Assembly: GCF_009831105.1 (NCBI RefSeq)
Contig: NZ_WUUQ01000002.1
Coordinates: forward strand, 240,001-272,000
Direction: 5' to 3'
DNA from: Copranaerobaculum intestinale
Lineage (GTDB): Bacteria > Bacillota_I > Bacilli_A > Erysipelotrichales > Erysipelotrichaceae
DNA: 32,000 nucleotides
A program made the translations under genes and the position numbers. Shown here in pieces: positions 4,790 through 31,526 of this stretch (position 1 is its first letter; every line of letters begins with the position of its first letter). The notes beneath the pieces are model-generated. The model was not told the origin of the DNA. It worked only from the letters and a program-made list of their open reading frames with translations, and made no database searches.

Positions 4790-6871
4790 TTATGGTTCTG
4801 CATTATGTTCGTGCAGGTAAGCTTGCAGATCGGTGAAGGAAAGAGCCTTGCTGTAAAGCCAGCCCTGATAGATATGGCATCCCATATCTGCTAGCTGCTG
4901 CTGTTGACTTTGATCCTCTACATATTCTGCGACTACATCGAAGTGCAATGATTGTGAAAGCTGCATGATCGATTCAATGATCTTAGCAGAGCGCTTGCTG
5001 TCACGAAGCTGTTTAATCAAGGAGCCATCCAGCTTGACACAGTCAAACTGATTATTCAGTAAGTACATCATGGAACTATGTCCCATGCCGAAATCATCCA
5101 TAATAATCCGTACGCCGAGTTTGCGAAGTCTCATGATCTGCGCGATATTTTTCTGCGTGATTTCCATAGCTGCTTGTTCGGTCAATTCCAAGCCGATCAT
5201 CGAGCTGTTGATTCCGGTCTGGTCGATTTCTTGCTGTATTTTTGATATCAGCTTAGGGTTAACCAATTGTTCTGCCGTTAAATTCAAAGAAAGTATGAAA
5301 TGCTGATAACCCTGATCCTGGAGAATTTTTAAATCGCAAAATACCTGATGGATCAATAGATCCCGCAGCAGCTCCAGATACCCGTTTTCTTTTAGCAGGG
5401 CGATGACCAGCGGCGGATACAAATAACCGATGGATTCCACAAAGCATCGAAGCAATGCTTCTGCACCTAATGCTTTTCCCTTCTGGTTAACCTGAGGCTG
5501 ATAATGAATGTTGATTTCTCCTTTATGCAGTTGATGTACGATTTCACCTAACAGAAAACGCGCCATTTCACCGGCTTCTCCTTCCAGCTGCATAAGCTTC
5601 GGTGAAGTGCCGTCTTCTTCATGCAGAATTACCAATTCTTCTAATTTTTTAACCTGCATTTTCTTAGTTTGATTGATCCTTCGCATATTGAAGCGTACAA
5701 ACGGCAGATAAATGAGCATACCGACGATTAGATTGACAAGCTGTAAAATGCTTCCGGAAATTGAGCCGGTCGCCGCATATCCGCTGATAAAAATCGGTGA
5801 AGTCCATTCCACTCCATGAATCGGAATGGGGACAATATGGAAAAACATTGCTCCATAGCTAATGACGGTTAAAACGATAGGGGTCAGAATAAACGGAACC
5901 AAATAAACAGGATTTAAGACGATTGGAATACCGAAAATCAGCAATTCATTCATATTAAAGACAGCCGGCAAGGTTGAAAAACCGACAAACCGTTTGAATA
6001 CCTTGCGTTTATCCGCAATCATGATCGCGGCAATCAAACACAGTAAGGCACCGCATCCGCCGAATAATACAAAGGTATCGAGAAAGGTCTTGGACATGAT
6101 CTGTCCTGATTGCAGGGCAAAATAATTTCTTGCCACATTATCAAGAACATTCCCCCCATGAATACCGAAGAACCACATGAGATGAAGCAGAAAGATAAAG
6201 ATCACACCGCTGAACAACGTAGTTCCCAAGGCAGTGAAGATAGTAAGCATAGCATCACTGATCAGTGACTGCAAATCATTGATGCCAAACGCGCTCATCA
6301 GCAGATGCAGAAAACTGAACAATAAGAGTATGACCGCTATGGGGATAATGGCATACATGGCATGGAAGAAGGTACTTTCATTCGCTGATTGATGCTTGAA
6401 AACTTTTTGCATCCACAAATTTAAAGTATGATACAGCATGGATGATACACATACAACCAATAATGCGTTAAACAACATCGTACTTTGGAACAATGTAAAG
6501 TCAAAGCTTTTGGCAGCGTTCCAACAAAAAATCAGGTAGGCACTTAGATTGACAAACACAAGCATGCCGCCTGTATTGAGTTTTAAATATTTCTCAAAAC
6601 TGATACTGATGGTAATGAGCAGAATCAGCGTGATAACATCTAAGGTACAGCCATGTATGATCGTCAACAGCTCGAGATAAGGCTTCCAGCCGGCAGAATG
6701 TAACAGAGTCTGGTATCCGGGAATCGGCAGACTTAAAAGCAGCAGTGCCGTCGATCCGCATAAGATAGCCGGAATGGCCAAGGCAACACCGTTTTGGATT
6801 GCCCGAATGATTACATTTTGTTCGATCTTTTGAAATGTTTTGCGCAGAAAAACGGTCATTGTCTCATTCAC
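4790..6871 (-). CDS. PTS EIIC (lactose/cellobiose family) membrane domain fused to a C-terminal EAL c-di-GMP phosphodiesterase domain
   Basis: Residues ~1-395 are polytopic and carry the EIIC signature NELLIFGIPIVLNPVYLVPFILTPIV. Residues ~445-690 carry EALLR (471-475), ELTE, DDFGMGHSS, KLDGSLI, AEYVE and QGWLYSKA, which is the full EAL catalytic set. Confidence 0.85.
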   Translation of the reverse strand: MNETMTVFLRKTFQKIEQNVIIRAIQNGVALAIPAILCGSTALLLLSLPIPGYQTLLHSAGWKPYLELLTIIHGCTLDVITLILLITISISFEKYLKLNTGGMLVFVNLSAYLIFCWNAAKSFDFTLFQSTMLFNALLVVCVSSMLYHTLNLWMQKVFKHQSANESTFFHAMYAIIPIAVILLLFSFLHLLMSAFGINDLQSLISDAMLTIFTALGTTLFSGVIFIFLLHLMWFFGIHGGNVLDNVARNYFALQSGQIMSKTFLDTFVLFGGCGALLCLIAAIMIADKRKVFKRFVGFSTLPAVFNMNELLIFGIPIVLNPVYLVPFILTPIVLTVISYGAMFFHIVPIPIHGVEWTSPIFISGYAATGSISGSILQLVNLIVGMLIYLPFVRFNMRRINQTKKMQVKKLEELVILHEEDGTSPKLMQLEGEAGEMARFLLGEIVHQLHKGEINIHYQPQVNQKGKALGAEALLRCFVESIGYLYPPLVIALLKENGYLELLRDLLIHQVFCDLKILQDQGYQHFILSLNLTAEQLVNPKLISKIQQEIDQTGINSSMIGLELTEQAAMEITQKNIAQIMRLRKLGVRIIMDDFGMGHSSMMYLLNNQFDCVKLDGSLIKQLRDSKRSAKIIESIMQLSQSLHFDVVAEYVEDQSQQQQLADMGCHIYQGWLYSKALSFTDLQAYLHEHNAEP

Positions 6872-14036: not shown

Positions 14037-15533
14037 ATGTATCATATTTCTGATATTAAAAAATTCGAACGGTGTGAAAAATATTTTTGGCTTTATACTC
14101 ACCAGCCAGTAAAGTATTCACCTTTCGTGTATCATAATGAGAATATGACAGAGCTTTGTAAAAAGCTGCTTTCGATTAATGAACCGTATTTTGAAGGACA
14201 AGCCAATGATGAAGGAGAAAAAGCATTACAAGCAATTTCAGAGTATTCCTGCCTTGTAAATGCCCGTTTTGTATATCAGGATTTGCGTATTAAGATACCG
14301 TTTTTGATAAAACAGGATGACCACAGCTTCGACGTTTATTTTACTTATACCAGTTGTTATCCAAAAGAAGGGGAAGCGCAGTCAATCGCCGACCATATGT
14401 ATGTGTTAAAACAGCTGCAAATACCGGTTCATCATATTTATGCGATTCATTTGAATGCGCAATATGTTCGTCAGGGGGACTTGGACGTTCATGAACTGCT
14501 GATAATCGATACCTATTTATTCAATCATAAAAATAAAGCGCATCAGAAAATTGAAGAATTAGTTGATACTTGTTCACGAAATCTGGATGAGGTGCTTGTG
14601 AGAATGCGTGAAGTTCAACAGGTTGAACATGTTGAAAGCAAGCGGACAACAATGTGCACAAGAGGATTAAAATGTCCTTATTTTGAAAAGTGCTTTGAAA
14701 CTCCAAGTCCCACCTCTGTATTGAATCTGGTACAGTCCGCTGGAAAGCTGGAAATGCAGGAAGCAGGTATTCAGGATATGCGTGATGTCGATCTAGCCAA
14801 GTTAGAAGGTACACGTCATCAGTATGCGCAGATCATGGCCGCGAAATGTTTCGACGGTATTTACTTTGATACCTTTGCTATGTATTCGTGGGTGCATGAC
14901 AATATTCAATATCCAATTTCCTATTTGGATTTTGAATGGGAAACATATGTTTATCCGCCTTACGACGGCATGAAGCCTTATGATGTGCTGACCTTTCAAT
15001 ATTCATTGCACATAGAAAAGGAACATGGTGCTGAGCTGGAGCATAAACAGTTTTTAGGTAAGCAGGACTGCCGTGAAGCATTCATACAGCATTTGCTTGC
15101 AAACATTCCGGAAACCGGCACAATTATGGTATTCAATATGGAAGGTGCAGAGAAGCTGCGCCTCATGCAGCTTAGCGAGCAGTTCCCACAGTATCGTGAA
15201 CAGTTAGTAGCGGTATGCGATCGCATGATCGATCTATCTTTGCCATTCAGTACCGGCAATGTCTATCTAAAAGAGATGGCGGGGATGTACTCACTGAAAA
15301 AATTGGTTACGATTTTCAGTGATTATCGTTATAGCGATCTGGATATTTCATATGGTATGGATGCCGTAAAAAACTGGCGTATGCTGGCACATAGCGATGA
15401 TGAGCAAAGTAAGGAAATAGAGCAGCATCTGTTTGAATATTGTGCGATGGATACATATGCAATGGTGCTTGTCTATCACGGTATCTTAGATCTATTAAAT
15501 GAAAAAAGTAAGAATTTATATTCATCATCTTAG
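14037..15533 (+). CDS. DUF2779-family protein (Cas4/RecB-like Cys-cluster N-domain plus DEDD/RNase H-like C-domain)
   Basis: The N-terminus ISDIKKFERCEKYFWL and the block YLDFEWETYVYPPYDGMKPYDVLTFQYSLH match the DUF2779 signature (LDFET...P...PyqqiPFQ.S.H). Cysteines at C13, C207, C213 and C219 are arranged like an Fe-S nuclease cluster. Confidence 0.7.
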   Translation: MYHISDIKKFERCEKYFWLYTHQPVKYSPFVYHNENMTELCKKLLSINEPYFEGQANDEGEKALQAISEYSCLVNARFVYQDLRIKIPFLIKQDDHSFDVYFTYTSCYPKEGEAQSIADHMYVLKQLQIPVHHIYAIHLNAQYVRQGDLDVHELLIIDTYLFNHKNKAHQKIEELVDTCSRNLDEVLVRMREVQQVEHVESKRTTMCTRGLKCPYFEKCFETPSPTSVLNLVQSAGKLEMQEAGIQDMRDVDLAKLEGTRHQYAQIMAAKCFDGIYFDTFAMYSWVHDNIQYPISYLDFEWETYVYPPYDGMKPYDVLTFQYSLHIEKEHGAELEHKQFLGKQDCREAFIQHLLANIPETGTIMVFNMEGAEKLRLMQLSEQFPQYREQLVAVCDRMIDLSLPFSTGNVYLKEMAGMYSLKKLVTIFSDYRYSDLDISYGMDAVKNWRMLAHSDDEQSKEIEQHLFEYCAMDTYAMVLVYHGILDLLNEKSKNLYSSS

Positions 15534-15793
15534 TTATATTTTGCAATTTTTTACTGTAAAATCGTATGGTGAAAATACACATAAAAAGGAATATTTGAAA
15601 ATTTTTCCTATATATAAAAAATAGAAAAATCCCGTTATGAAAGATGATTGCACCTGCCTCATGGGTTGTTTATAATGATGGCAGGGAAAGGAAGAAACTG
15701 ATAAAACAAAATGGTGGGGGCCGAAACAGTTGATACGGTATACTTCTGAGGGAGATTTAAAGAAGCGAAAGAACTGTGATTTTTCTGTTTCAA

Positions 15794-15822
15794 ACGCCAT
15801 GTCCACCATGGTGCTTTTTTTA
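15794..15822 (+). terminator. Intrinsic terminator-like hairpin inside the leader of the 94-aa ORF
   Basis: cgCCATG-tccac-CATGGtg stem (7 bp including one G-U pair) followed by a T7 run. It ends 15 nt upstream of the ATG at 15838. Confidence 0.55.
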
Positions 15823-15837
15823 TCAGCGGGTGAAATT

Positions 15838-16122
15838 ATGCGTATTGAGAATGATGAAAGATTGCGTAAAATGTATGCCGATATTTATCAGGAAATTATC
15901 AATATTACCGGGTATCATCACAAAGATGATTTAGAGCTTTTAGATCGATGGCTGGAAGATAATAATATTGTGGACGTATATTTACAGATATTACAAATTT
16001 ACACGTCAGATATTAGACTGACGCCTCAGGAACGTGATTTGCTATTGCAGTATCGTACAATGAATGAGCGCAGCAGGGCAAAATTAAGAAAGTCATTAAC
16101 ATTGCTAACAAGCACAAAGTAA
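15838..16122 (+). CDS. Hypothetical 94-aa helical protein, first gene of the regulator cluster
   Basis: The ATG at 15838 is preferred because the track start (15730) would read through the terminator hairpin. A GGGTGA RBS precedes it. I recognise no family. The C-terminal LTPQERDLLLQYRTMNERSRAKL resembles tails seen on small XRE-type proteins. Confidence 0.5.
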   Translation: MRIENDERLRKMYADIYQEIINITGYHHKDDLELLDRWLEDNNIVDVYLQILQIYTSDIRLTPQERDLLLQYRTMNERSRAKLRKSLTLLTSTK

Positions 16123-16130
16123 TAAACTAT

Positions 16131-16159
16131 TTTACAGAAAATTTCTTATTTGTTACAAT
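16131..16159 (+). promoter_or_regulatory. Promoter of regulator 1
   Basis: TTTACA (16131-16136), a 17-nt spacer ending in TG-T, then TACAAT (16154-16159). It lies 24 nt upstream of the ATG at 16183. Confidence 0.6.
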
Positions 16160-16182
16160 AGACCTGTAAAGGGGTTTGACGG

Positions 16183-17499
16183 ATGGAGACGATTATAAAC
16201 TCATCTTATTTAATAACAATCGGAACGCTGATCGGTTATGAAAGAAAGATGAAATGCAAGGAATTGGCTGGTACCAAGGAAAAGGAAGCATATAAACAAA
16301 TACCTTTTTGTGAAGGGATTTGTTGCGTGCAGACATATCGTAATATTGAAAAAGCTACTCTTGAAGTGAAAACTCCAATCTATGAGAAATTACTTCATAA
16401 GCTTGGCTATGAAATGATTTATGATGATGATCTTTATAAGGAGATAAATTATAGATTGCAGAATTTGAATGATGCAATAGAGAAATATGATTTGGAATCA
16501 GTATTTATTATTGTTGATAAATTGAATAATTTATTGAAAAATTCGGAAAAAGATATTTATCAGAAATATTTAATTCAAGTAATTGATGTCATATATCAAT
16601 ATTATAAAATCAATGAGTTCCCGGATTTAATAAATGTTGAAATGATGAAATCTGTATATGCAGGCTTTCCTTCATATATAAAAAGCGTCATGATTGATAT
16701 ATTATATAAATATGCCGTATTGAATATTATTGATGATAATGAATATGTTAAATATGTAAAAGAAATCAATTTAAAAACAAGTAAATATGTGCCTAATCAA
16801 ATAAATTATTTACAATTTTTATGTAATATTCAAGATTTTGATAAATTCTATCTTATTTTTGAAGAAGTATTGAAAGACTTAAAAAAGAAGCGATTGTTTT
16901 TAAGAATGCTTGATATTTATGATTTAAAAATCATAGCTGATCTTAATACTGATCCAACAAGAATAGTAAAAGACATAGATGAATGTAATATAAATGTAGA
17001 TCGTGTTATGAATAAATTAAGTTTTCATGAGGATGAAGAAGTCACTTCTAAAACCATAAAAACAAAGCTATCGCAGCATTATTATAATATTGGTTATTCA
17101 TTGATGATTGCAAGGCAGTATAATGAAGCAAAAGATGCATTTGAAAAATCTTTGAATTATGATGATATCTTTGAATTAGCATGTAAAGTGTTTTTATTTA
17201 ATTGCTATGATAGATTAGGATTTGATTGTGTTGAGTATAGGAATTATATTAATCTGAGCAGAACTTATGATACAAGTAATAAACATTATGTTTTATTCTT
17301 ATATTATGTTTTCAAACTTGAGAATAATAATTTGAGGGAAAGGTTAAAGTACATTAAAAAATATGTGTTGAATTATATTCTTCCAGAAGATACATTGCTC
17401 ATAAGAATTTTATTTTTCGAAATTAATAATTTGGCGAAGGCAACTTCTAATTATCAAGTTCTCCAAGAATTTATTGAAAAAATGGGTTTAATTAACTAA
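16183..17499 (+). CDS. RRNPP-like (NprR/PlcR/AimR-type) regulator 1: degenerate XRE HTH plus TPR-like helical repeats
   Basis: The N-terminus IGTLIGYERK...FCEGICCVQTYRNIEKA...IYEKLLHKLGY follows the XRE HTH pattern. The rest is all-helical with TPR-like units (YYNIGYSLMIARQYNEAKDAFEKSL). At 438 aa it is close to NprR in size. A secreted pro-peptide gene lies immediately downstream. Confidence 0.6.
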   Translation: METIINSSYLITIGTLIGYERKMKCKELAGTKEKEAYKQIPFCEGICCVQTYRNIEKATLEVKTPIYEKLLHKLGYEMIYDDDLYKEINYRLQNLNDAIEKYDLESVFIIVDKLNNLLKNSEKDIYQKYLIQVIDVIYQYYKINEFPDLINVEMMKSVYAGFPSYIKSVMIDILYKYAVLNIIDDNEYVKYVKEINLKTSKYVPNQINYLQFLCNIQDFDKFYLIFEEVLKDLKKKRLFLRMLDIYDLKIIADLNTDPTRIVKDIDECNINVDRVMNKLSFHEDEEVTSKTIKTKLSQHYYNIGYSLMIARQYNEAKDAFEKSLNYDDIFELACKVFLFNCYDRLGFDCVEYRNYINLSRTYDTSNKHYVLFLYYVFKLENNNLRERLKYIKKYVLNYILPEDTLLIRILFFEINNLAKATSNYQVLQEFIEKMGLIN

Positions 17500-17566
17500 T
17501 AAATTACCCATTTTTTTATTTTTGTTTAAATTCTGCTAAAAGCAGGATTATGGGTATTTCGGTGCA

Positions 17567-17595
17567 TAGATAAAATATTTCATGGCCTTTATGAT
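17567..17595 (+). promoter_or_regulatory. Candidate activator-dependent promoter of pro-peptide 1
   Basis: A weak -35 TAGATA, a 17-nt spacer, then TATGAT inside the 9-mer CTTTATGAT. That 9-mer recurs upstream of pro-peptide 2. Confidence 0.4.
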
Positions 17596-17629
17596 GTTTC
17601 TGTAAAGAGAAAAGGAGGGTCATTAGACC

Positions 17630-17779
17630 ATGAAAAAATTAATTGTTGGATTTTCAGTTGTGGCTGTTTTGGCAGGATGTTTTATAGTGAATAATTCAGA
17701 AAATAATGAAATATCTACTAAAACAAGTGATAGAAGTGGTGGATTAATTGCTGATAGAAGTGGTGGATTAATTGCTTAA
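17630..17779 (+). CDS. Secreted pro-peptide 1 (49 aa): MKKLIVGFSVVAVLAGCFIVNNSENNEISTKTSDRSGGLIADRSGGLIA
   Basis: This ORF is not in the supplied track; I translated it by hand. An AAAGGAGGG RBS sits 10 nt upstream. The peptide has an MKK start, a hydrophobic signal sequence with an LAGC lipobox, and a duplicated C-terminal octapeptide. A terminator lies downstream at 17892. Confidence 0.6.
   Translation: MKKLIVGFSVVAVLAGCFIVNNSENNEISTKTSDRSGGLIADRSGGLIA
17729..17776 (+). repeat. Perfect 24-bp tandem duplication (GATAGAAGTGGTGGATTAATTGCT x2) encoding DRSGGLIA twice
   Basis: 17729-17752 is identical to 17753-17776, and the stop codon follows directly. Confidence 0.95.
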
Positions 17780-17891
17780 TTATCGTTGATTGCGTAGAAG
17801 GTATCTCAAATCTCACATACGCGGGTGGAACCCATGTTCACATCTACATATAGCTGGGGAGCTAAACTTACAATCGAACATGGTGAAAAGC

Positions 17892-17918
17892 AGGACTTAG
17901 GGAGAGTCCTCTTTTTTT
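17892..17918 (+). terminator. Rho-independent terminator ending cassette 1
   Basis: AGGACT-tagggag-AGTCCT hairpin followed by C and a T7 run. Confidence 0.7.
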
Positions 17919-18044
17919 ATATTTGGACTTTTTCGCCGATTTTTGCAGACAAGGGACAAAATCATGAAAGACTGCATGTCCGACTGCTATACGCAGACAA
18001 AGTGATTATGTTAAAATAAACAAAATGGGAAAGAGGGAGTTTGA

Positions 18045-19346
18045 ATGATAGAGAATACGGATTATTTCCTCGCAGTAGGTGCTTTAATTGAGTGTGAACG
18101 TATTCGTCAGAAGAAACTGGCATCGGATCACAAGCCCTTCAATCAAGAATCTTTCTGCGAGCATATTTGTGATACCAAAACATATCGGCGCATGAGTGTT
18201 GAGAAAAGGGAAATCAATCATCGCTTCTATGGTCAGTTGCTACAGCGGTTGGGACTTCAAATGGCCTACGACGATGAACTTTATAAAAAGCTGCATGTAC
18301 GTTTGGCCAATTTAAACGATGCCATAACCAAATATAATTTACATGACATCGAGGAAATCTACGGGAAAATAGAAAATCTTATCGGGGACTGTCACCCGGA
18401 TATTTACTTTCAATATATCCGCTGGATCACAACCCTGCTTACCAATTATTATTTACATAATCAGTTTCCAAGTCTGGAGGAAATGCAGGTGCTCTTACAA
18501 ATATGTATGGGATTTCCTAGGGATGTACGCGATATGATGATGGATTTGATTTTTAAATACTATCGGCTTCATACCACATCCAATCAGGATTATTTTTCAT
18601 ATATTAAAAAATTTCCGTATGAATCCAGCACCTTTCTTCCAAATCGAATAAATTATATACAGTCTATTCATGACCGAGATGACTTTGATCAATTTACCGC
18701 GCTGTCGAATGAATTGATACCTATACTGGAAAGTACCCGTAATTATTTTCGTCTGATTGATGTTTATGACTTACAGATTACGGCAATGTATTATACCGAC
18801 CGTATTCATGTTGAGGATGTCATAACAAAAGCGGATAATAATGTGACTTCCTTATTTGAAAAATATAAATACAAAGCAGATATGCCAATCAAAAAGATTG
18901 AATGGCCATTAAAGCGTAAAATATCACAATATACATATCATAAGGGATGCATTTTATTTTTACTGAAAAATTATGAGCAGGCTATCCATATCCTGAGTGA
19001 ATATCTGTTGAATAATCAAATGATGGAGGTTCACAGCAAGGTGATGCTAATAAGCTGTTATCATCATCTTCATCAAAAAATTCCTTCCGCTTATCTGGAA
19101 TTGCATCACCATACAGATGATCAGAAATTTTTGAATATGCACACGTATTTTCAAATGAAGTATCTTCATGATGAACAATTGATTACGCTAAACAACTACT
19201 TGGAATATGAGGTCTTACCGCTGGTAATGCCGGAAGATGATGTACTGATCCGGGTTCTCACGTATGAGTTAAGTTTAAATGCGAAGAATAACCGCGGCTA
19301 TGTATTATTTCATCATTTCTTTGAAAAACTAGGCATGACGCAATGA
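18045..19346 (+). CDS. RRNPP-like regulator 2 (paralog of regulator 1)
   Basis: Aligns with regulator 1 over its full length. Matching blocks include YFLAVGALIECER / YLITIGTLIGYER, FCEHIC..TYR / FCEGIC..TYR, LGLQMAYDDELYKKLHVRLANLNDAITKYNL / LGYEMIYDDDLYKEINYRLQNLNDAIEKYDL, MPEDDVLIRVL / LPEDTLLIRIL and FFEKLGM / FIEKMGL. A GAGGGAG RBS precedes the start. Confidence 0.6.
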   Translation: MIENTDYFLAVGALIECERIRQKKLASDHKPFNQESFCEHICDTKTYRRMSVEKREINHRFYGQLLQRLGLQMAYDDELYKKLHVRLANLNDAITKYNLHDIEEIYGKIENLIGDCHPDIYFQYIRWITTLLTNYYLHNQFPSLEEMQVLLQICMGFPRDVRDMMMDLIFKYYRLHTTSNQDYFSYIKKFPYESSTFLPNRINYIQSIHDRDDFDQFTALSNELIPILESTRNYFRLIDVYDLQITAMYYTDRIHVEDVITKADNNVTSLFEKYKYKADMPIKKIEWPLKRKISQYTYHKGCILFLLKNYEQAIHILSEYLLNNQMMEVHSKVMLISCYHHLHQKIPSAYLELHHHTDDQKFLNMHTYFQMKYLHDEQLITLNNYLEYEVLPLVMPEDDVLIRVLTYELSLNAKNNRGYVLFHHFFEKLGMTQ

Positions 19347-19412
19347 AAATTCCCTAATTTATGAGAATGTTAGGATTTTTTACCGGTTCTGTATTTTAGG
19401 TATTTTACCGTC

Positions 19413-19441
19413 TGGAGACCGTCTTTTCCTTTCTTTATGAT
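19413..19441 (+). promoter_or_regulatory. Candidate activator-dependent promoter of pro-peptide 2
   Basis: A weak -35 TGGAGA, a 17-nt spacer, then TATGAT within CTTTATGAT. The geometry is the same as upstream of pro-peptide 1. Confidence 0.4.
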
Positions 19442-19466
19442 AGAGATGGAAAGGAGGAGACATATT

Positions 19467-19592
19467 ATGAAAAAGTTGTTGATAAGTGTCTTTGCGGTAC
19501 TGCTTGCCGGTGGTCTGTTGAGTGGGGAAGCTTTACAGCCAAAGCAGGAACAGAAGGTTATGGTGGATCGTTCGATTTCTGTAATTTTCTAA
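19467..19592 (+). CDS. Secreted pro-peptide 2 (41 aa): MKKLLISVFAVLLAGGLLSGEALQPKQEQKVMVDRSISVIF
   Basis: This ORF is not in the supplied track; I translated it by hand. An AAAGGAGGAG RBS sits 6-7 nt upstream. The peptide has an MKK start and a hydrophobic signal peptide. Its C-terminal DRSISVIF parallels DRSGGLIA of pro-peptide 1. Confidence 0.6.
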   Translation: MKKLLISVFAVLLAGGLLSGEALQPKQEQKVMVDRSISVIF

Positions 19593-19692
19593 ATACATTC
19601 GCCTCAGGTGAAGAAAAGAGGGTGATATGCCTTCTTTTTCTATTTGAAACTGGGCGTTTATACCTGACGAATCTGGGTAGGTAACATAGGTT

Positions 19693-21780
19693 ATGTCAGG
19701 GGGTGATAGTATCGCTACAGGATATTTACAGGTACAAACCTTCATCGCCGATCAGGCTATGCCAATTGCCAATGTAACCATTCGTGTATATAAAGTTAAT
19801 AATAACGAGGTTGTGTTTGAAGATTATTTCATGACTGATCAGGAGGGAAGTACCGAAATTATTGCGCTATATGCACCGGATCGCGATCTTTCTTTAGAGG
19901 AAAGCAATGATTATCGGCCATATGAACAATATAATGTAGAAGCTCGAATCATTGGATTTGAATCAGAAGAGCGCATCGGTGTACAAATTTTTGCGGGGGA
20001 GCGCTCTGAATTGTTTTTTTCGCTTGTTCCCACTCGCATCAGAACCTCTACCGAACGTAATGTCAATACCATAGAAGACCACCATCTGCTGACGAACTAT
20101 GGGGGAAATAATACCGGACAATCGATCCGTGATAATTTCAATGAAGGTGATGTGCAGCCGTTTGTATTAGATCAGGTAATCATTCCCAGAAAGATTACCG
20201 TTCATTTGGGGAGACCGACTGCCAGCGCTGAAAATGTTACAGTGGACTTTATTTATTATATTAAGAATGTTTGCAGCTCTGAAATTTATCCGACGTGGCC
20301 GTATGAGGCGCTTCGGGCGAATATCTGGGCACAGATTTCACTTGCATTGAACCGGATTTATACGGAGTGGTATCGAAGCAAAGGATATAACTTTGATATA
20401 ACCAATAGTACAGCATATGATCAGGCATTTGTGAAGAACCGTAATATTTATGATACAGTGTCCGTTATTGTTGATGACGTATTCAACCAATATATTCAGA
20501 AATCAAATTTCCATGAACCATTTTATGCAGAATATTGTGACGGCAAGATTGCGACATGTCCTGGCATGAAGCAATGGGGTACGCTGGATCTGGCCAACCG
20601 CGGTTATGATTCACTGCAAATTTTAAAATACTATTATGGGGATAATATTAAGATCGTGGAGTCTAACAATATTCAGGATGTTTCCGGATCATATCCGGGC
20701 ACACCGCTGCGTTTAGGCAGCAGTGGACAGGAAGTCTTTATGATTCAGGAATTTTTGAATGCGATTGCAGTTAATTATCCGAATATCAAACCGATTTATC
20801 CGGTAGACGGTAATTTTGGACAGTCTACAGAAGATGCGGTGAAAGTATTCCAGCGGCAGTTTAATCTTACTCCGGATGGCATTGTCGGCAAAAATACATG
20901 GTATAAGATATCCTTTATCTATGTGGCAGTGCGCAAGCTTGCTGAATTAACGAGTCTTGGCCGTGAGGAAGATGCATTCAGCGGTGAATGGCCAGGAGTT
21001 GTGCTACGTATCGGTGATAAGGGTGTGAATGTACAGCAAGTGCAGTTCTATCTGTCTTCGATCGCACAGTTCTATCCGCAGATTCCCGATGTAACGATTG
21101 ACAGCCGTTTCGGTACACAGCTGGAACGTTCAGTTCTGGCTTTCCAGAAGGCCTTCAATCTGATTCAGGATGGTATCGTAGGGCAGGGTACATGGAACCG
21201 TATTTTTGAGGTATTCTCAACTTTAGAATCAACAGTGACACCGCCTTGGACACCGCCTCCGTATCCTGGTTTTACAATTTCTGAAGGTGCGTCCGGAAGT
21301 AATGTAGAGGCCTTGCAGGGAGCACTGAATCTGGTATCTCAGCAGTACACAAATCTGCCGGTCATTGTCGCAGACGGCTATTTCGGTCCGTCTACTACCA
21401 ATTCTGTAAAGGATTTCCAGCGTACTTTTGGACTGACTGTGGATGGCATTGTCGGACAGGAGACATGGAATAAGATATTCAAGACAGCTCTGGAAGTGGA
21501 TCAGGGGGATCTTCCTTCGCAGGGACTGCCGCCGTTTCCGGGAACCGTTTTACGCGTTGGTTCTACCGGCAACGATGTCCAGCTGATGCAGACAAGGCTA
21601 AAAACGATAGCGATTTATTATAAAACCATACCGGATATTACCGCTGATGGAATTTTTGGCAGCTCAACTCGCAATGCGGTCATTGCGTTTCAGCGGCTGA
21701 TGGGACTGGAAGCAGACGGAGTTATCGGGCAGCAGACTTGGTATCAGATAAATAAGGTATTCGAGGAATTGACAACCTAG
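19693..21780 (+). CDS. Peptidoglycan-binding protein: CarboxypepD_reg-like N-domain, SpoIID/LytB-like central region, 4x PG_binding_1
   Basis: GYLQVQTF...IANVTIRVYK...TDQEGST resembles a carboxypeptidase-regulatory fold. YIKNVCSSEIYPTWPYEALRANIWAQISLALNRI resembles the SpoIID signature. Four ~75-aa repeats carry the G..V..LQ..L....DG.FG..T..AV..FQ....L..DG.VG..TW pattern. There is no N-terminal signal peptide. The start codon is uncertain. Confidence 0.75.
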   Translation: MSGGDSIATGYLQVQTFIADQAMPIANVTIRVYKVNNNEVVFEDYFMTDQEGSTEIIALYAPDRDLSLEESNDYRPYEQYNVEARIIGFESEERIGVQIFAGERSELFFSLVPTRIRTSTERNVNTIEDHHLLTNYGGNNTGQSIRDNFNEGDVQPFVLDQVIIPRKITVHLGRPTASAENVTVDFIYYIKNVCSSEIYPTWPYEALRANIWAQISLALNRIYTEWYRSKGYNFDITNSTAYDQAFVKNRNIYDTVSVIVDDVFNQYIQKSNFHEPFYAEYCDGKIATCPGMKQWGTLDLANRGYDSLQILKYYYGDNIKIVESNNIQDVSGSYPGTPLRLGSSGQEVFMIQEFLNAIAVNYPNIKPIYPVDGNFGQSTEDAVKVFQRQFNLTPDGIVGKNTWYKISFIYVAVRKLAELTSLGREEDAFSGEWPGVVLRIGDKGVNVQQVQFYLSSIAQFYPQIPDVTIDSRFGTQLERSVLAFQKAFNLIQDGIVGQGTWNRIFEVFSTLESTVTPPWTPPPYPGFTISEGASGSNVEALQGALNLVSQQYTNLPVIVADGYFGPSTTNSVKDFQRTFGLTVDGIVGQETWNKIFKTALEVDQGDLPSQGLPPFPGTVLRVGSTGNDVQLMQTRLKTIAIYYKTIPDITADGIFGSSTRNAVIAFQRLMGLEADGVIGQQTWYQINKVFEELTT
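20692..21762 (+). repeat. Four tandem PG_binding_1 domain-encoding repeats within the CDS
   Basis: Repeat units start near 20692, 20990, 21262 and 21535 (YPGTPLRLG, WPGVVLRIG, YPGFTISEG, FPGTVLRVG). They are diverged at the DNA level. Confidence 0.8.
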
Positions 21781-26872: not shown

Positions 26873-26906
26873 CTGACAAATTATGAGCAGCTTATTCGCC
26901 TATACT
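26873..26906 (+). promoter_or_regulatory. Candidate spoIIG-type promoter with 22-bp spacer
   Basis: CTGACA (26873-26878), a 22-nt spacer, then TATACT (26901-26906). Spo0A-box-like TTCGNNN elements lie at 26803-26809 and 26895-26901. The predicted leader is very short. Confidence 0.35.
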
Positions 26907-26927
26907 TGTCCTCACAGGAGGCGGGGC

Positions 26928-27665
26928 ATGAGCAGTTATATCGAGGTTACGTTCATCAATAATGTTTTCATTATGATGCTTTCACTGGTTCTGGCACATT
27001 ACCTGCTGCTTGACCGCATGAGCCGCAGAACGATGTTACACTATACATTCGCTATTTCCTTGTTGGCAGTGCTGTGCTGGAGCTCCTTTTCCCCCTTGCT
27101 GATGCTGGGAGCGGAAATCCTGTCCTGTATTTTCTGGTTCAAGCTGCATATAAAAGTGTTTGCCTTAGCTTATAGTCTGCGGCTGCTTTTTTCCTTGACC
27201 TGCTATGTTCTGTATGGCGGAAGCTTTCATCTGCTGATCTATTTTGTTCCAATCGGTACCTACGCAATCTTGTACTTTTGGGTGATTGCCGGCATTGCCC
27301 TGATCGCATGCTTGCGAAAATGGAAATATTATATTACCCAGGCCCAGTATATCTACGAAACTGAGCTTTATACAAAGCAGAAAAAATTTCATATTTATGG
27401 CTACCTGGACAGTGGAAATGTGCTCACATATCATGAAATTCCTATTATATTCGCGGTTTCCAGATTTTATGAATATTTCAAAAATGAGAACATAGAATTA
27501 GTAGTAATGAATACTATGAATCAAACCAGCTCGATACGGGTCTATCCGTGTGAGCTGCAGGTAAGAGGCTGTGAGAAACAGCCTGCATATATTTGCTTTG
27601 ATCGTCAGGGCATCATTCCGATGCACTGCGAATGTCTGTTGAATCTCCATGTATTGACGAGGTGA
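26928..27665 (+). CDS. spoIIGA: Sigma-E processing peptidase SpoIIGA
   Basis: Five-TM N-terminal half followed by the aspartic protease motif GYLDSGNVL, positioned directly upstream of sigE. An AGGAGG RBS sits 6 nt upstream of the ATG at 26928. The track start is 26883. Confidence 0.85.
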
Positions 27666-27670
27666 AGAAG

Positions 27671-28372
27671 ATGAACATATGGAAAAGACTTTGGGCATTT
27701 TTATTTCGGTATCGTGATCATCAGGAAGTACTTTATATTCAGGGAAATGATGTGCTGCCTCAGCCGCTGTCGAAGGATGAGGAGCTGGCAGCGCTGATTG
27801 CACTGGAGGATGGAGATGAGGAAGCACGCAACACCTTGATTGAACATAATCTGCGGTTAGTTGTATATATTGCCAAGCGTTATGAAACCAATCCGATCTT
27901 TATGGAGGATTTGATCAGTATCGGCAGTATCGGTTTGATCAAGGCGGTAAATACGTTTAAACGGGATAAGAATATCAAGCTGGTGACCTATGCTTCCCGC
28001 TGTATCGAAAATGAGATTCTCATGTATCTAAGAAAAAAGAGCCGTCGCAAGGTAGAAGTATCCTTTGACGAACCGCTGAATGTTGATTATGACGGCAATG
28101 AACTACTGCTGAGCGATATTTTGGGAACCGATGATGACGTAGTCACAAAGGAATTTGAACGTAATGAGAACAAGCGAGAGCTGTTAGATGCCATGAAGTG
28201 TCTCAAGGAACGAGAACGTCAGATCCTGCAGATGCGCTATGGCATCGAGCATGAGGAATTGACCCAGAAAGATATTGCATCGCGCTTAGGCATCTCCCAG
28301 TCATATATCTCCCGACTGGAAAAGCGTATTATCCATAAATTAAAAAACCAGATGAAACAAAACAACGGGTAG
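27671..28372 (+). CDS. sigE: RNA polymerase sporulation sigma factor E (pro-sigma-E)
   Basis: Near-identical blocks to B. subtilis SigE: [78 protein letters not shown] and [25 protein letters not shown] precedes the ATG at 27671. Confidence 0.95.
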
Positions 28373-28401
28373 CCTGACAGGAATTACCAGTTGTTTTTTT
28401 T
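28361..28401 (+). terminator. Imperfect terminator between sigE and sigG
   Basis: AACAAC-GGTA...TACC-GTTGTT bulged stem followed by a T8 run. Confidence 0.5.
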
Positions 28402-28451
28402 ATAAACAAACGGCTCACGGGAAGACTGCTAGTATCGCTAGGAGGAATATC

Positions 28452-29228
28452 ATGAGTCGTTACAAAGTGGAAATCAGCGGGGTCAATACCGCTGCTTTGA
28501 AGGTACTTACGAATAAGGAGATGAAAGAGCTGTTTGTGAGACTTCAAAACGGGGAAAAAGAGGCGAAAGATATTCTGATTGAGGGTAATTTGAAACTGGT
28601 ATTATCAATCGTACAGCGTTTTTCATCCCGCTGTGAAAATATGGATGATCTGTTTCAAGTCGGCTGCATCGGACTGGTAAAGTCCATTGACAATTTTGAT
28701 TTGAAACATGAAGTGCGGTTTTCCACCTATGCCGTTCCGATGATCATGGGGGAGATCAAGCGATATTTAAGAGACAATCAGGTGATTCGCGTAAGCCGGC
28801 ATTTAAAAGATCTGGCATATAAGGCATTTAAGCTGAAAGAGGAGTATATCCATGAGCATCAGCATGAGCCTTCTACGGCTTATTTAGCTGCCCAGCTGGA
28901 GGTAAAGGAAAAGGATATTGTAGATGCTTTGGATTCCGTACAGAGTGTAATCTCAATCTTTGAACCGGTCTATAACAGTGATGGCGATGAATTGTATCTC
29001 ATGGATCAGATTCGTGATGACAAGGATGAAATTGCACTGCTGGAAAATGTACTGGCTTTAAAAAACAGTATGAAGGCACTGAATCCCAAAGAAATGGATA
29101 TCATCAAAAAGCGCTACTATGATGATATGACCCAGACCGAGATTGCCAGTGAACTGGGAATTTCGCAGGCGCAGGTGAGCCGGCTGGAGAAAAGCGCGAT
29201 CGCCGTTTTAAAGAAAAACTTTAATTAA
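28452..29228 (+). CDS. sigG: RNA polymerase sporulation sigma factor G
   Basis: Contains MSRYKVEISGVNT, DDLFQVGCIGLVKSIDNFD, FSTYAVPMIMGEIKRYLRDN..IRVSR and ISQAQVSRLEK, which closely parallel B. subtilis SigG. Confidence 0.95.
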   Translation: MSRYKVEISGVNTAALKVLTNKEMKELFVRLQNGEKEAKDILIEGNLKLVLSIVQRFSSRCENMDDLFQVGCIGLVKSIDNFDLKHEVRFSTYAVPMIMGEIKRYLRDNQVIRVSRHLKDLAYKAFKLKEEYIHEHQHEPSTAYLAAQLEVKEKDIVDALDSVQSVISIFEPVYNSDGDELYLMDQIRDDKDEIALLENVLALKNSMKALNPKEMDIIKKRYYDDMTQTEIASELGISQAQVSRLEKSAIAVLKKNFN

Positions 29229-30828: not shown

Positions 30829-31311
30829 GTGAGGCTGGTGGACGAGAAGCGTTTTGATACAATGAAAAACGGTTATAATCGTTTTCAGGTAGATGACTGT
30901 CTGATGAAGCTGCATGATGAAATAGCAATGCTTACCCATAAGGTTGAACTATACCGCATGCGCAGTGAGGATGTTGAGGAACAGCTGAAGGACATCAAGC
31001 AAAAGTATGAGTTTGTCGTAACCGGATTGGCCGCAAAGGAAAAAGCCGCAGAGGATATGTCACGGCTGGCCATGCGGGAAGCCAATACGATCGTGAATAC
31101 CGCCCAACAGAATGCGGATGTGATCGTAAAGGAAGCGCTGATGACAGCCCGCAGCATTCTGCTTGATATTGCCGGTTTAGGCAAAGAAGCAGCGCAGCTG
31201 AAGGGCTCGATGAAGGAACAGCTGGATGTTTTGGAGAAGGCCTTGAATGCCTTTGAGGTTCCCCCGATCCCGGATATGGAGTTATTGAATAGTACAGAAG
31301 AAAAGCGATGA
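30829..31311 (+). CDS. divIVA: DivIVA domain-containing protein
   Basis: The N-terminus F....NGYN...VD..L is the DivIVA lipid-binding motif, followed by a coiled-coil. The start is GTG at either 30829 or 30838. Confidence 0.85.
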   Translation: MRLVDEKRFDTMKNGYNRFQVDDCLMKLHDEIAMLTHKVELYRMRSEDVEEQLKDIKQKYEFVVTGLAAKEKAAEDMSRLAMREANTIVNTAQQNADVIVKEALMTARSILLDIAGLGKEAAQLKGSMKEQLDVLEKALNAFEVPPIPDMELLNSTEEKR

Positions 31312-31317
31312 ACAGGA

Positions 31318-31526
31318 CTCGTTTTGATCAGAAATCTTATAGAGAGCCGCTGGCTGGTGGAAAGCGGCAGAGGAATGATGAAAATATCACCTGGGAGCTG
31401 ATTTCCCTAAGTATCGTAAGGAAATCCGTCACCTTCCGCGTTAGGAAGCAGAGGGCATATGAAATTCATATGAACTAAGGTGGTACCGCGTAATTTTACG
31501 TCCTTAGCGATAAGGGCGTTTTTTTA
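31318..31526 (+). promoter_or_regulatory. T-box leader, isoleucine-specific (ATC specifier), with terminator
   Basis: The T-box sequence AACTAAGGTGGTACCGCG lies at 31473-31490. Stem I elements are present (AGAGA, GGTGGAAAG). The specifier ATC-A lies at 31386-31389. The terminator ACGTCCTTA-gcga-TAAGGGCGT plus a T7 run lies at 31498-31526. Confidence 0.9.

Follow-up and report, generated by a model that had tools for sequence, protein, structure and literature searches.

Two tandem candidate RRNPP-type receptor and pro-peptide cassettes, one hypervariable and one invariant among related strains, in the chromosome of Copranaerobaculum intestinale

Receptor and pro-peptide genes at the locus

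The stretch analysed here (the window) comprises 32,000 nt of the chromosome of the spore-forming gut bacterium Copranaerobaculum intestinale, family Erysipelotrichaceae (RefSeq assembly GCF_009831105.1, contig NZ_WUUQ01000002.1, positions 240,001 to 272,000 of the forward strand). Four genes in its central part lie in tandem on the same strand: two code for candidate peptide receptors of the RRNPP type (R1 and R2), and each is followed by a small gene for a putative exported pro-peptide (P1 and P2; Table 1). All four open reading frames (ORFs) sit at the coordinates given in the original prediction, a reading of the window made from its letters and ORF translations. That reading had described R1 and R2 as tandem paralogues of about 435 aa combining a helix-turn-helix (HTH) of the XRE type with a long body resembling tetratricopeptide repeats (TPR). 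The ORF list, a full-length alignment (32% identity end to end, E = 9e-73) and AlphaFold models all agreed with this description.

Table 1. Features of the R1-P1-R2-P2 locus; positions are those of the window.
Feature	Position	Strand	Description
Conserved 94-aa ORF	15838-16122	+	Just upstream of R1; 93-100% conserved in L001-L004 and L006
Promoter-like site for R1	16131-16159	+	TTTACA, 17 nt, TACAAT, extended TG; consensus scan 10/12; prediction only
R1 receptor/regulator gene	16183-17499	+	438 aa; XRE-type HTH and TPR-like body; predicted cytoplasmic
Hypervariable 'pherotype' block	16515-17775	+	R1 codons ~110-438, R1-P1 spacer, P1 up to its stop codon
Terminator-like hairpin and U-run	17475-17524	+	Over the R1 stop codon; RNA fold -16.3 kcal/mol, z = -4.5
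Promoter-like site for P1	17567-17595	+	TAGATA, 17 nt, TATGAT; consensus scan
P1 pro-peptide gene	17630-17779	+	49 aa; starts 130 nt after the R1 stop
Structured noncoding element after P1	17787-17918	+	Conserved; hairpins and intrinsic terminator (17892-17910 plus T-run)
R2 receptor/regulator gene	18045-19346	+	433 aa; paralogue of R1 with the same architecture
Promoter-like site for P2	19413-19441	+	TGGAGA, 17 nt, TATGAT; consensus scan
P2 pro-peptide gene	19467-19592	+	41 aa; starts 120 nt after the R2 stop
Terminator-like hairpin and U-rich tract	19613-19645	+	After P2, upstream of the 695-aa gene; RNA fold

The AlphaFold2 model of R1, built on a 54-sequence alignment (pLDDT 95.4, pTM 0.91), consists of five short helices at residues 7-73, with the HTH at about residues 30-75, followed by 18 helices arranged in about nine TPR-like repeats. 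The R2 model (10-sequence alignment) reached a pLDDT of 83, and both models are all-helical. In Foldseek comparisons with the PDB, RRNPP receptors led the match lists of both proteins. For R1, the leading match was Rap of phage phi3T (E = 1.4e-3). The best TM-score among solved structures was obtained with apo NprR (5dbk; TM 0.54/0.64, root-mean-square deviation 5.6 Å over 377 columns), and Rap and NprR were followed by ComR, DNA-bound PlcR, DNA-bound AimR and Rgg2. For R2, the leaders were Rap of phi3T, AimR and NprR. The original prediction had held that a non-TPR, non-peptide-binding fold would count against it; the models instead show an HTH plus TPR architecture of the RRNPP type, with Rap, NprR, ComR, PlcR and AimR at the head of the matches. 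Three traits that define RRNPP(A) systems are thus found at the locus: a TPR-like superhelical receptor, as judged from the models and Foldseek (TM up to 0.64, with modest E-values), an N-terminal HTH, present in all subfamilies except Rap, and an adjacent gene for an exported pro-peptide (P1 and P2).

At the sequence level, a profile of the N-terminal 80 residues had the HTH of PlcR as its top PDB match (E = 0.0023), followed by PezA and HipB. Pfam detected a sub-threshold TPR_2 match at residues 300-327 of R1, and the family profile matched the TPR consensus at positions 278-310. TPR_1 or TPR_2 was recognised in 16 of the 54 members of the family alignment, and HTH_3 in five. The most conserved columns of the family (R21, F42, C47, T51, E56 and Y67) are all N-terminal.

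P1 and P2 start with MKK, continue into a hydrophobic core, and have AAAGGAGGG or GGAAAGGAGGAG about 8 nt before the ATG. The original prediction had ascribed to both a consensus ribosome-binding site and a Sec-type signal peptide beginning with MKK. The ribosome-binding site, the MKK start and the position hold; the P1 signal, however, is of the lipoprotein type, not plain Sec, since it contains a lipobox (LAGC) and matches Pfam LPAM_1 at 21.6 bits (cut-off 20 bits). P2 has LAGG in the lipobox position, with no Cys. The P1 tail consists of two exact tandem copies of a 24-nt unit (17728-17751 and 17752-17775), each encoding DRSGGLIA; P2 ends in VMVDRSISVIF.

Related loci (designated L001, L002 and so on) were all obtained by exact-protein look-ups in Logan, ENA and NCBI assemblies. 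A pro-peptide gene is present wherever the contig runs past the receptor (L001-L007). Small ORFs are found in frame and at the same position in seven independent related contigs, which indicates that they are not chance ORFs, and both the signal peptide and the D-R-x-G-x-x-I-x tail persist where DNA identity is down to about 50%. The P2 tail of the window recurs unchanged in L001-L004, L007 and, at an R2 identity of 52%, in the distant L005. The P2 gene of L005 (L005:2618-2741) has a true lipobox, LTGC, as against LAGG in the window; the lipobox Cys of P2 may be dispensable, or may have been lost recently. More distantly, at about 20% identity, a gene for an exported peptide of 41-80 aa lies downstream of the receptor in three of the five family members examined (L008, L014 and L011). 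The co-occurrence of regulator and small ORF, which the original prediction had proposed as a check, is therefore observed both in close relatives and in these three distant ones.

Other arrangements were seen among the distant homologues. In L013 (L013:3001-7174) and L014, two 415-aa receptor copies flank an AAA_14/DUF4143 ATPase gene on the opposite strand, and a 42-aa exported peptide follows the second receptor copy only. In L010 (L010:4429-6299), a receptor homologue with 38% identity (P0013), possibly an orphan receptor, is preceded by DUF2779 and by an unrelated XRE-like ORF of 112 aa.

Variation of the two cassettes among related strains

An alignment of about 6.3 kb of the locus from five contigs delimited a hypervariable block with sharp borders (Table 1). 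On both flanks, L002 and L004 share at least 99% identity with the window, with 17-18 mismatches across 14037-16400 and 6-11 across 17800-20300, as compared with 50-70% identity inside the block. The block begins near codon 110 of R1, within TPR-like repeat 1, and extends to the stop codon of P1. Its GC content is 24-25%, against 37-38% in the flanks. Among the R1 alleles, identity amounts to 93-99% over the N-terminal 105 aa and to 49-65% over the C-terminal 220 aa (85% in one pair). Synonymous divergence (dS) in the block has reached saturation (1.4-2.4), also in pairs of strains that have an N-terminal dS of 0.016. The R1-P1 alleles are thus old lineages that recombination has moved, not the products of recent mutation.

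Each of the eight contigs sampled carried a different R1-P1 allele. In contrast, R2 is 99-100% identical in strains whose R1 differs. This opposition between a pair that is hypervariable within the species (R1-P1) and an invariant one (R2-P2) was not part of the original prediction. Judging from these comparisons, R1-P1 would behave as a strain-specific pherotype channel, composed of allele classes that diverged anciently and recombine at sharp borders, and R2-P2 as a channel common to the species or genus. The identity of the P1 peptides tracks that of the R1 TPR domains (r = 0.74, exact Mantel p = 0.0028). Co-evolution of R1 and P1 would be in keeping with this, although the tight linkage of the two within one recombining block means that the correlation is not independent proof of an interaction.

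The predicted pheromone-like units lie at the P1 tails, and one to three of them are found per P1 gene. The tail unit is DRSGGLIA in the window (two copies), GDRNGVVIA in L001, ADRSGVHIC in L002, ADRSGTVIS in L003, GDRNGGLIA in L004 (three copies), GDRSGTVIS in L005 and GDRWGGLIA in L007 (two copies). In L003, R1 is followed by five tandem P1-type pro-peptide genes (L003:3951-4647). Genes 2-4 of this array abut as TAAATG, without a Shine-Dalgarno sequence of their own, and one of the five genes has MAGV instead of the lipobox Cys. The array encodes seven pheromone-like units, distributed as DRSGTVIS, DRNGTVIS, DRNGIVIS, DRNGGLIA plus DRNGVVIA, and DRNGGVIA plus DRWGGLII. Two of these, DRNGGLIA and DRNGVVIA, are identical to the pheromones predicted for L004 and L001, respectively, and DRWGGLII is close to that of L007.

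Noncoding elements and neighbouring genes

Several of the noncoding elements predicted at the locus (Table 1) are conserved. The ACCCATTTTTTTATTTT arm of the hairpin at the R1 stop codon is invariant in seven loci, as are the P1 -10 element (TTTATGAT) and ribosome-binding site (AAAGGAGGG), despite their variable surroundings. The P2 -10 element and a 30-nt block upstream of it are conserved in six loci. The hairpin after P2 was not flagged by a simple terminator scan, and RNA folding revealed no hairpin after R2. The sequence GGTATTT, present 36 nt upstream of TATGAT in both pro-peptide promoters of the window, was considered as a shared operator and rejected, as it is not conserved in other P1 alleles.

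The structured element after P1 (about 130 nt, fold z = -2.5) surpasses the flanking genes in conservation and can be recognised even in L005. Substitutions and indels fall in its loops, and the stems do not vary. This pattern would fit either a 3′ untranslated region of P1 or a small RNA, and the element is a candidate output of the system. An 'x' ORF of 61-64 aa (17825-18019) proposed by gene callers was rejected as coding: 1-nt indels break its frame between loci, and it contains an internal terminator. A search of Rfam with positions 15480-19720 gave no match even at E <= 1.

The gene order FeoB, ABC/FtsX, HD, DUF2779, 94-aa ORF, R1, P1, R2, P2 is common to L001-L007, and in all of them P2 is followed by a 695-aa PG_binding protein, Zn_dep_PLPC and an M19 peptidase. 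The 94-aa ORF, pointed out in the original prediction, proved to be real, being conserved upstream of R1. It had no match in Pfam, NCBIfam, PHROGs, PADLOC or the PDB, and it could code for an accessory factor or be a target gene. A relationship to the 112-aa XRE-like ORF found in L010 at the corresponding position was discarded, as the two show no similarity. A conserved noncoding stretch of roughly 300 nt (15534-15837), with no Rfam match, separates DUF2779 from the 94-aa ORF; a terminator-like hairpin (15795-15813) with a T-run closes it about 25 nt before the start of the ORF, and the stretch could act as an attenuator or leader. On the other side, the 695-aa gene (19693-21780) lies directly downstream of P2 and is syntenic in all related contigs. 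Its product has an N-terminal region matching phrog_28785, a weak SpoIID-like segment and four PG_binding_1 repeats, and the gene is a possible target of the system.

The window corresponds to core chromosome of a spore former: it includes MatE, murB, feoB, spoIIGA-sigE-sigG, sepF, ylmH, divIVA and a T-box leader, and contains no integrase or phage structural genes. The spoIIGA-sigE-sigG cluster (26883-29228) lies about 7 kb downstream of the locus, and the T-box leader (31299-31508; 134.6 bits) is at the 3′ end of the window. Farther upstream, on the minus strand, an unusual fusion was found in which a PTS EIIC permease is joined to a C-terminal EAL (c-di-GMP phosphodiesterase) domain (4790-6871; 693 aa).

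Relation to known systems and interpretation

A word-indexed search of 5.8 billion proteins returned seven relatives of R1 and four of R2; the sole named one, which matches R1 at 100% identity, is 'hypothetical protein GSF08_06065 [Clostridiaceae bacterium DONG20-135]'. When 1.84 billion cluster representatives were searched exhaustively with a profile, 109 proteins were detected at E <= 1e-3, mostly of 410-440 aa and aligned end to end, and six at E <= 1e-30. The close family is therefore tiny and the wider one modest. The only other name recovered for the family was 'hypothetical protein [Erysipelotrichaceae bacterium]'. No Pfam or NCBIfam family scored above threshold for R1 or R2; searches of NCBIfam, PHROGs and PADLOC returned no match to the receptors, the 94-aa ORF or DUF2779, and a fold search of viral proteins (BFVD) retrieved generic TPR proteins only. 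No relative was found in two GTDB genome scans (one with the family alignment, one with R1) or in a JGI metagenome scan with the conserved R1 N-terminus. Further, a profile of the central region from which the canonical TPR had been removed matched no RRNPP protein among PDB chains. The original prediction could not assign the receptors to a named RRNPP subfamily, and this still stands: neither matched NprR, Rap, PlcR, AimR or QsrG, and their relatives bear 'hypothetical' labels only. R1 and R2 are thus not demonstrable members of any named subfamily, and the locus is a candidate new subfamily of the well-known RRNPP kind.

NprR-NprX of the Bacillus cereus group shares with the locus a receptor of about 420-440 aa with an XRE-type HTH and about nine TPR-like repeats and, downstream of the receptor gene in the same orientation, a small gene whose product is an exported pro-peptide with the signal in its C-terminal part. 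The architecture of the NprR subfamily (HTH plus nine TPR in about 420 aa) is present in R1 and R2, but no sequence or profile similarity to NprR was detected (phmmer, profile searches). The peptides differ as well (SKPDIVG type in NprX, D-R-x-G-x-x-I-x here), as do the hosts (Bacillaceae and Erysipelotrichaceae), and the cassette described here is duplicated in tandem and has a lipobox in P1.

The Qsr-Qsp systems of Clostridium acetobutylicum (QssA-H) consist of an Xre-HTH plus multi-TPR regulator followed by a pro-peptide of 39-50 aa; several paralogous systems occur per genome, conservation is highest in the HTH, and the active heptapeptide is located C-terminally (PMC7376267). Their gene order, pro-peptide length and pattern of conserved HTH and variable TPR are those seen at R1-P1 (PMC7376267). 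However, an hhalign comparison of the family profile with QsrG (pSOL1 CA_P0040), a single-sequence template of limited sensitivity, gave a probability of 2.8% through one TPR motif only, and tblastn found no match in plasmid records including pSOL1, which carries qsrG and also, according to PMC7376267, qsrH. The L..P..W motif shared by Qsp peptides is not found here either, the tails having neither P nor W; neither the sequence similarity nor the peptide motif that would mark a Qsr-Qsp system was thus detected.

Rap proteins, known with their Phr peptides from Bacillus, its phages and its plasmids, are the leading Foldseek matches of the receptors (8rsu, 8rst). The acidic-then-Arg start of the peptides described here (DRxG..) resembles that of Phr pentapeptides such as DRVGA and ERGMT. 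Tandem pheromone units and tandem pro-peptide genes have been described for Phr (PMC5199041, PMC11343458), their duplication has been proposed as a promiscuous intermediate in specificity shifts (PMC5199041), and phage Rap systems have been shown to yield several mature peptides (PMC11343458). Unlike R1 and R2, Rap has an N-terminal three-helix bundle, lacks an HTH and acts by protein-protein interaction; the XRE-type HTH is the most conserved part of the present family. There is also no sequence similarity to Rap, and the predicted peptide unit is longer here (8-9 aa).

A conserved output domain combined with a co-varying sensor and signal is a pattern known for PlcR-PapR pherotypes and for the ComQXPA and Agr specificity groups; as at R1-P1, variation within a species affects the signal gene jointly with the signal-binding part of the receptor, and the DNA-binding or output part is conserved. 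ComQXPA and Agr, however, are membrane-kinase systems. The resemblance to PlcR lies in the HTH, the best sequence-profile match of the N-terminal domain: PlcR, whose partner PapR has a C-terminal heptapeptide, has 5 TPRs in about 285 aa, as against about nine repeats in 433-438 aa for R1 and R2, and the TM-scores obtained for PlcR are 0.29-0.45. In addition, every strain sampled here has a different allele, unlike PlcR pherotypes, and the divergence among R1 alleles (about 50% at the amino acid level) is presumably larger. The traits of AimR-AimP, a phage-encoded system with aimX and an xxxxGG/A peptide, were not found, the locus having a core chromosomal context, no tblastn match in phages and a different peptide motif; between aimX and the structured RNA downstream of P1 there is a positional analogy only. 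In a structural phylogeny of RRNPPA proteins, the nine-TPR, HTH-bearing QssR and NprR fall into one clan with Rap (PMC12700828), and the fold matches of the R1 and R2 models point to that clan. RRNPP_detector reported 11 known and 21 candidate subfamilies from complete genomes (PMC10075063); the string 'Erysipelotrich' is absent from its main text and the supplementary files searched.

Taken together, these results make it likely that this chromosomal locus of a spore-forming gut member of the Erysipelotrichaceae consists of two paralogous peptide quorum-sensing systems of the RRNPP type, arranged in tandem. The central claim of the original prediction, that a receptor followed by an exported pro-peptide forms an RRNPP-type cassette, is supported by fold, gene order, conservation and co-variation. 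Some results weigh on the other side. No validated RRNPP receptor was matched by sequence (phmmer and profile searches against PDB chains including NprR 4gpk and 5dbk; hhalign against QsrG). The Foldseek E-values are 1e-3 to 1e-2, none being below 1e-3, TM-scores are about 0.5, and generic TPR proteins (proteasome lid, LGN) come close behind the RRNPP matches. The window contains no oligopeptide permease gene; no operator or output gene was identified at the locus, the original prediction likewise having noted no obvious output gene apart from the 94-aa ORF and the peptidoglycan-binding protein. No obvious pro-peptide adjoins the receptor in the distant homologues L010 and L012, a lipobox Cys is missing from P2 of the window and from one L003 gene and is thus not universal, and the peptide-receptor correlation is subject to the linkage mentioned above.

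Some of these points would also fit a different explanation, in which R1 and R2 are ordinary HTH-TPR transcription factors for some other ligand or partner, and the small ORFs are unrelated lipoproteins or secreted (e.g. membrane-anchored or antimicrobial) peptides. A generic TPR is the sole family signal at the sequence level, two distant homologues lack an adjacent peptide, and the P1 lipobox suggests a lipoprotein fate. This explanation was nonetheless judged improbable. The variable block runs from inside the TPR domain of the receptor exactly to the P1 stop codon, indicating that the R1 TPR domain and P1 evolve as one unit. Further, the conserved part of the peptide is a short C-terminal motif in tandem repeat, as in Phr pheromones, the mature part (about 30 aa) is too short and too variable for a structural lipoprotein, and the order of receptor and exported peptide recurs at about 20% receptor identity. 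That the locus is the communication module of a mobile element (a phage, or an integrative and conjugative element), like arbitrium or phage Rap-Phr, seems very remote: although the variable block has a low GC content, phage Rap and AimR are among the structural matches, and the downstream 695-aa protein matches endolysin-type PHROGs via its PG_binding domains, the same chromosomal synteny is found in contigs 83-100% identical, and core genes (murB, spoIIGA-sigE-sigG, sepF and divIVA) flank the locus in a window free of integrase and phage structural genes. Moreover, tblastn searches of 50,697 phage and 72,556 plasmid records gave no match.

The extreme allelic diversity of R1-P1 among near-identical strains, with anciently diverged classes, and the presence of predicted pheromones of other strains in the five-gene array of L003, could also reflect a system that serves mainly inter-strain interference or kin discrimination, not density sensing; a non-cognate P1 would then inhibit or hijack the R1 of other strains, much as in agr cross-inhibition. 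Little probability is given to this as the main function. It is compatible with quorum sensing, not an exclusive alternative to it, and peptide arrays could equally be duplication-divergence intermediates (PMC5199041).

Under the preferred interpretation, that of two RRNPP-type quorum-sensing systems, peptide processing, uptake, binding and regulon can be envisaged by analogy with NprR, PlcR and Qsr. P1 and P2 would be made from their own promoters and exported via Sec, and P1 would probably be processed as a lipoprotein and anchored by its lipobox Cys. Extracellular proteases would release C-terminal peptides of 8-9 residues (DRSGGLIA, two per P1, and DRSISVIF), which an oligopeptide permease would re-import, and these would bind to the cognate receptor on the concave side of its TPR superhelix. 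Binding would change the action of the XRE-type HTH of the receptor on target promoters; likely targets would be the promoters of P1 and P2, the structured RNA that follows P1, and genes nearby. A more far-reaching reading, put forward tentatively and rather unlikely to hold in all its parts, would make R1-P1 a strain-level 'dialect' system of a human-gut commensal, with ancient allele classes kept under balancing selection and recombining at the HTH/TPR border. L003 would then broadcast the pheromones of other dialects (mimicry or manipulation), the output would be the element at 17787-17918, an aimX-like riboregulator in a chromosomal, non-phage RRNPP system, and the lipid-anchored pro-pheromone would add a contact- or protease-dependent release.

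Cell-to-cell communication by an RRNPP receptor and its pro-peptide is an already known kind of system. What is new here is an intraspecific pherotype cassette beside an invariant paralogue, a pro-peptide with a lipobox, tandem pheromone units, and a five-gene array in a related strain. Work on RRNPP systems has so far been carried out almost entirely in Bacillus, Streptococcus, Enterococcus and Clostridium, and this locus would add a candidate subfamily from an abundant, poorly studied group of the human gut. The predicted pheromones (DRSGGLIA, DRSISVIF and their allelic variants) are directly synthesisable. The pro-peptide array of L003 bears on the duplication-divergence model proposed for Rap-Phr. 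By position alone, the spoIIGA-sigE-sigG cluster about 7 kb away and the adjoining SpoIID-like peptidoglycan-binding protein raise the possibility of a link to sporulation or cell-wall remodelling. Finally, the coexistence in one locus of a variable channel and an invariant paralogue amounts to a natural experiment on the diversification of signalling specificity.

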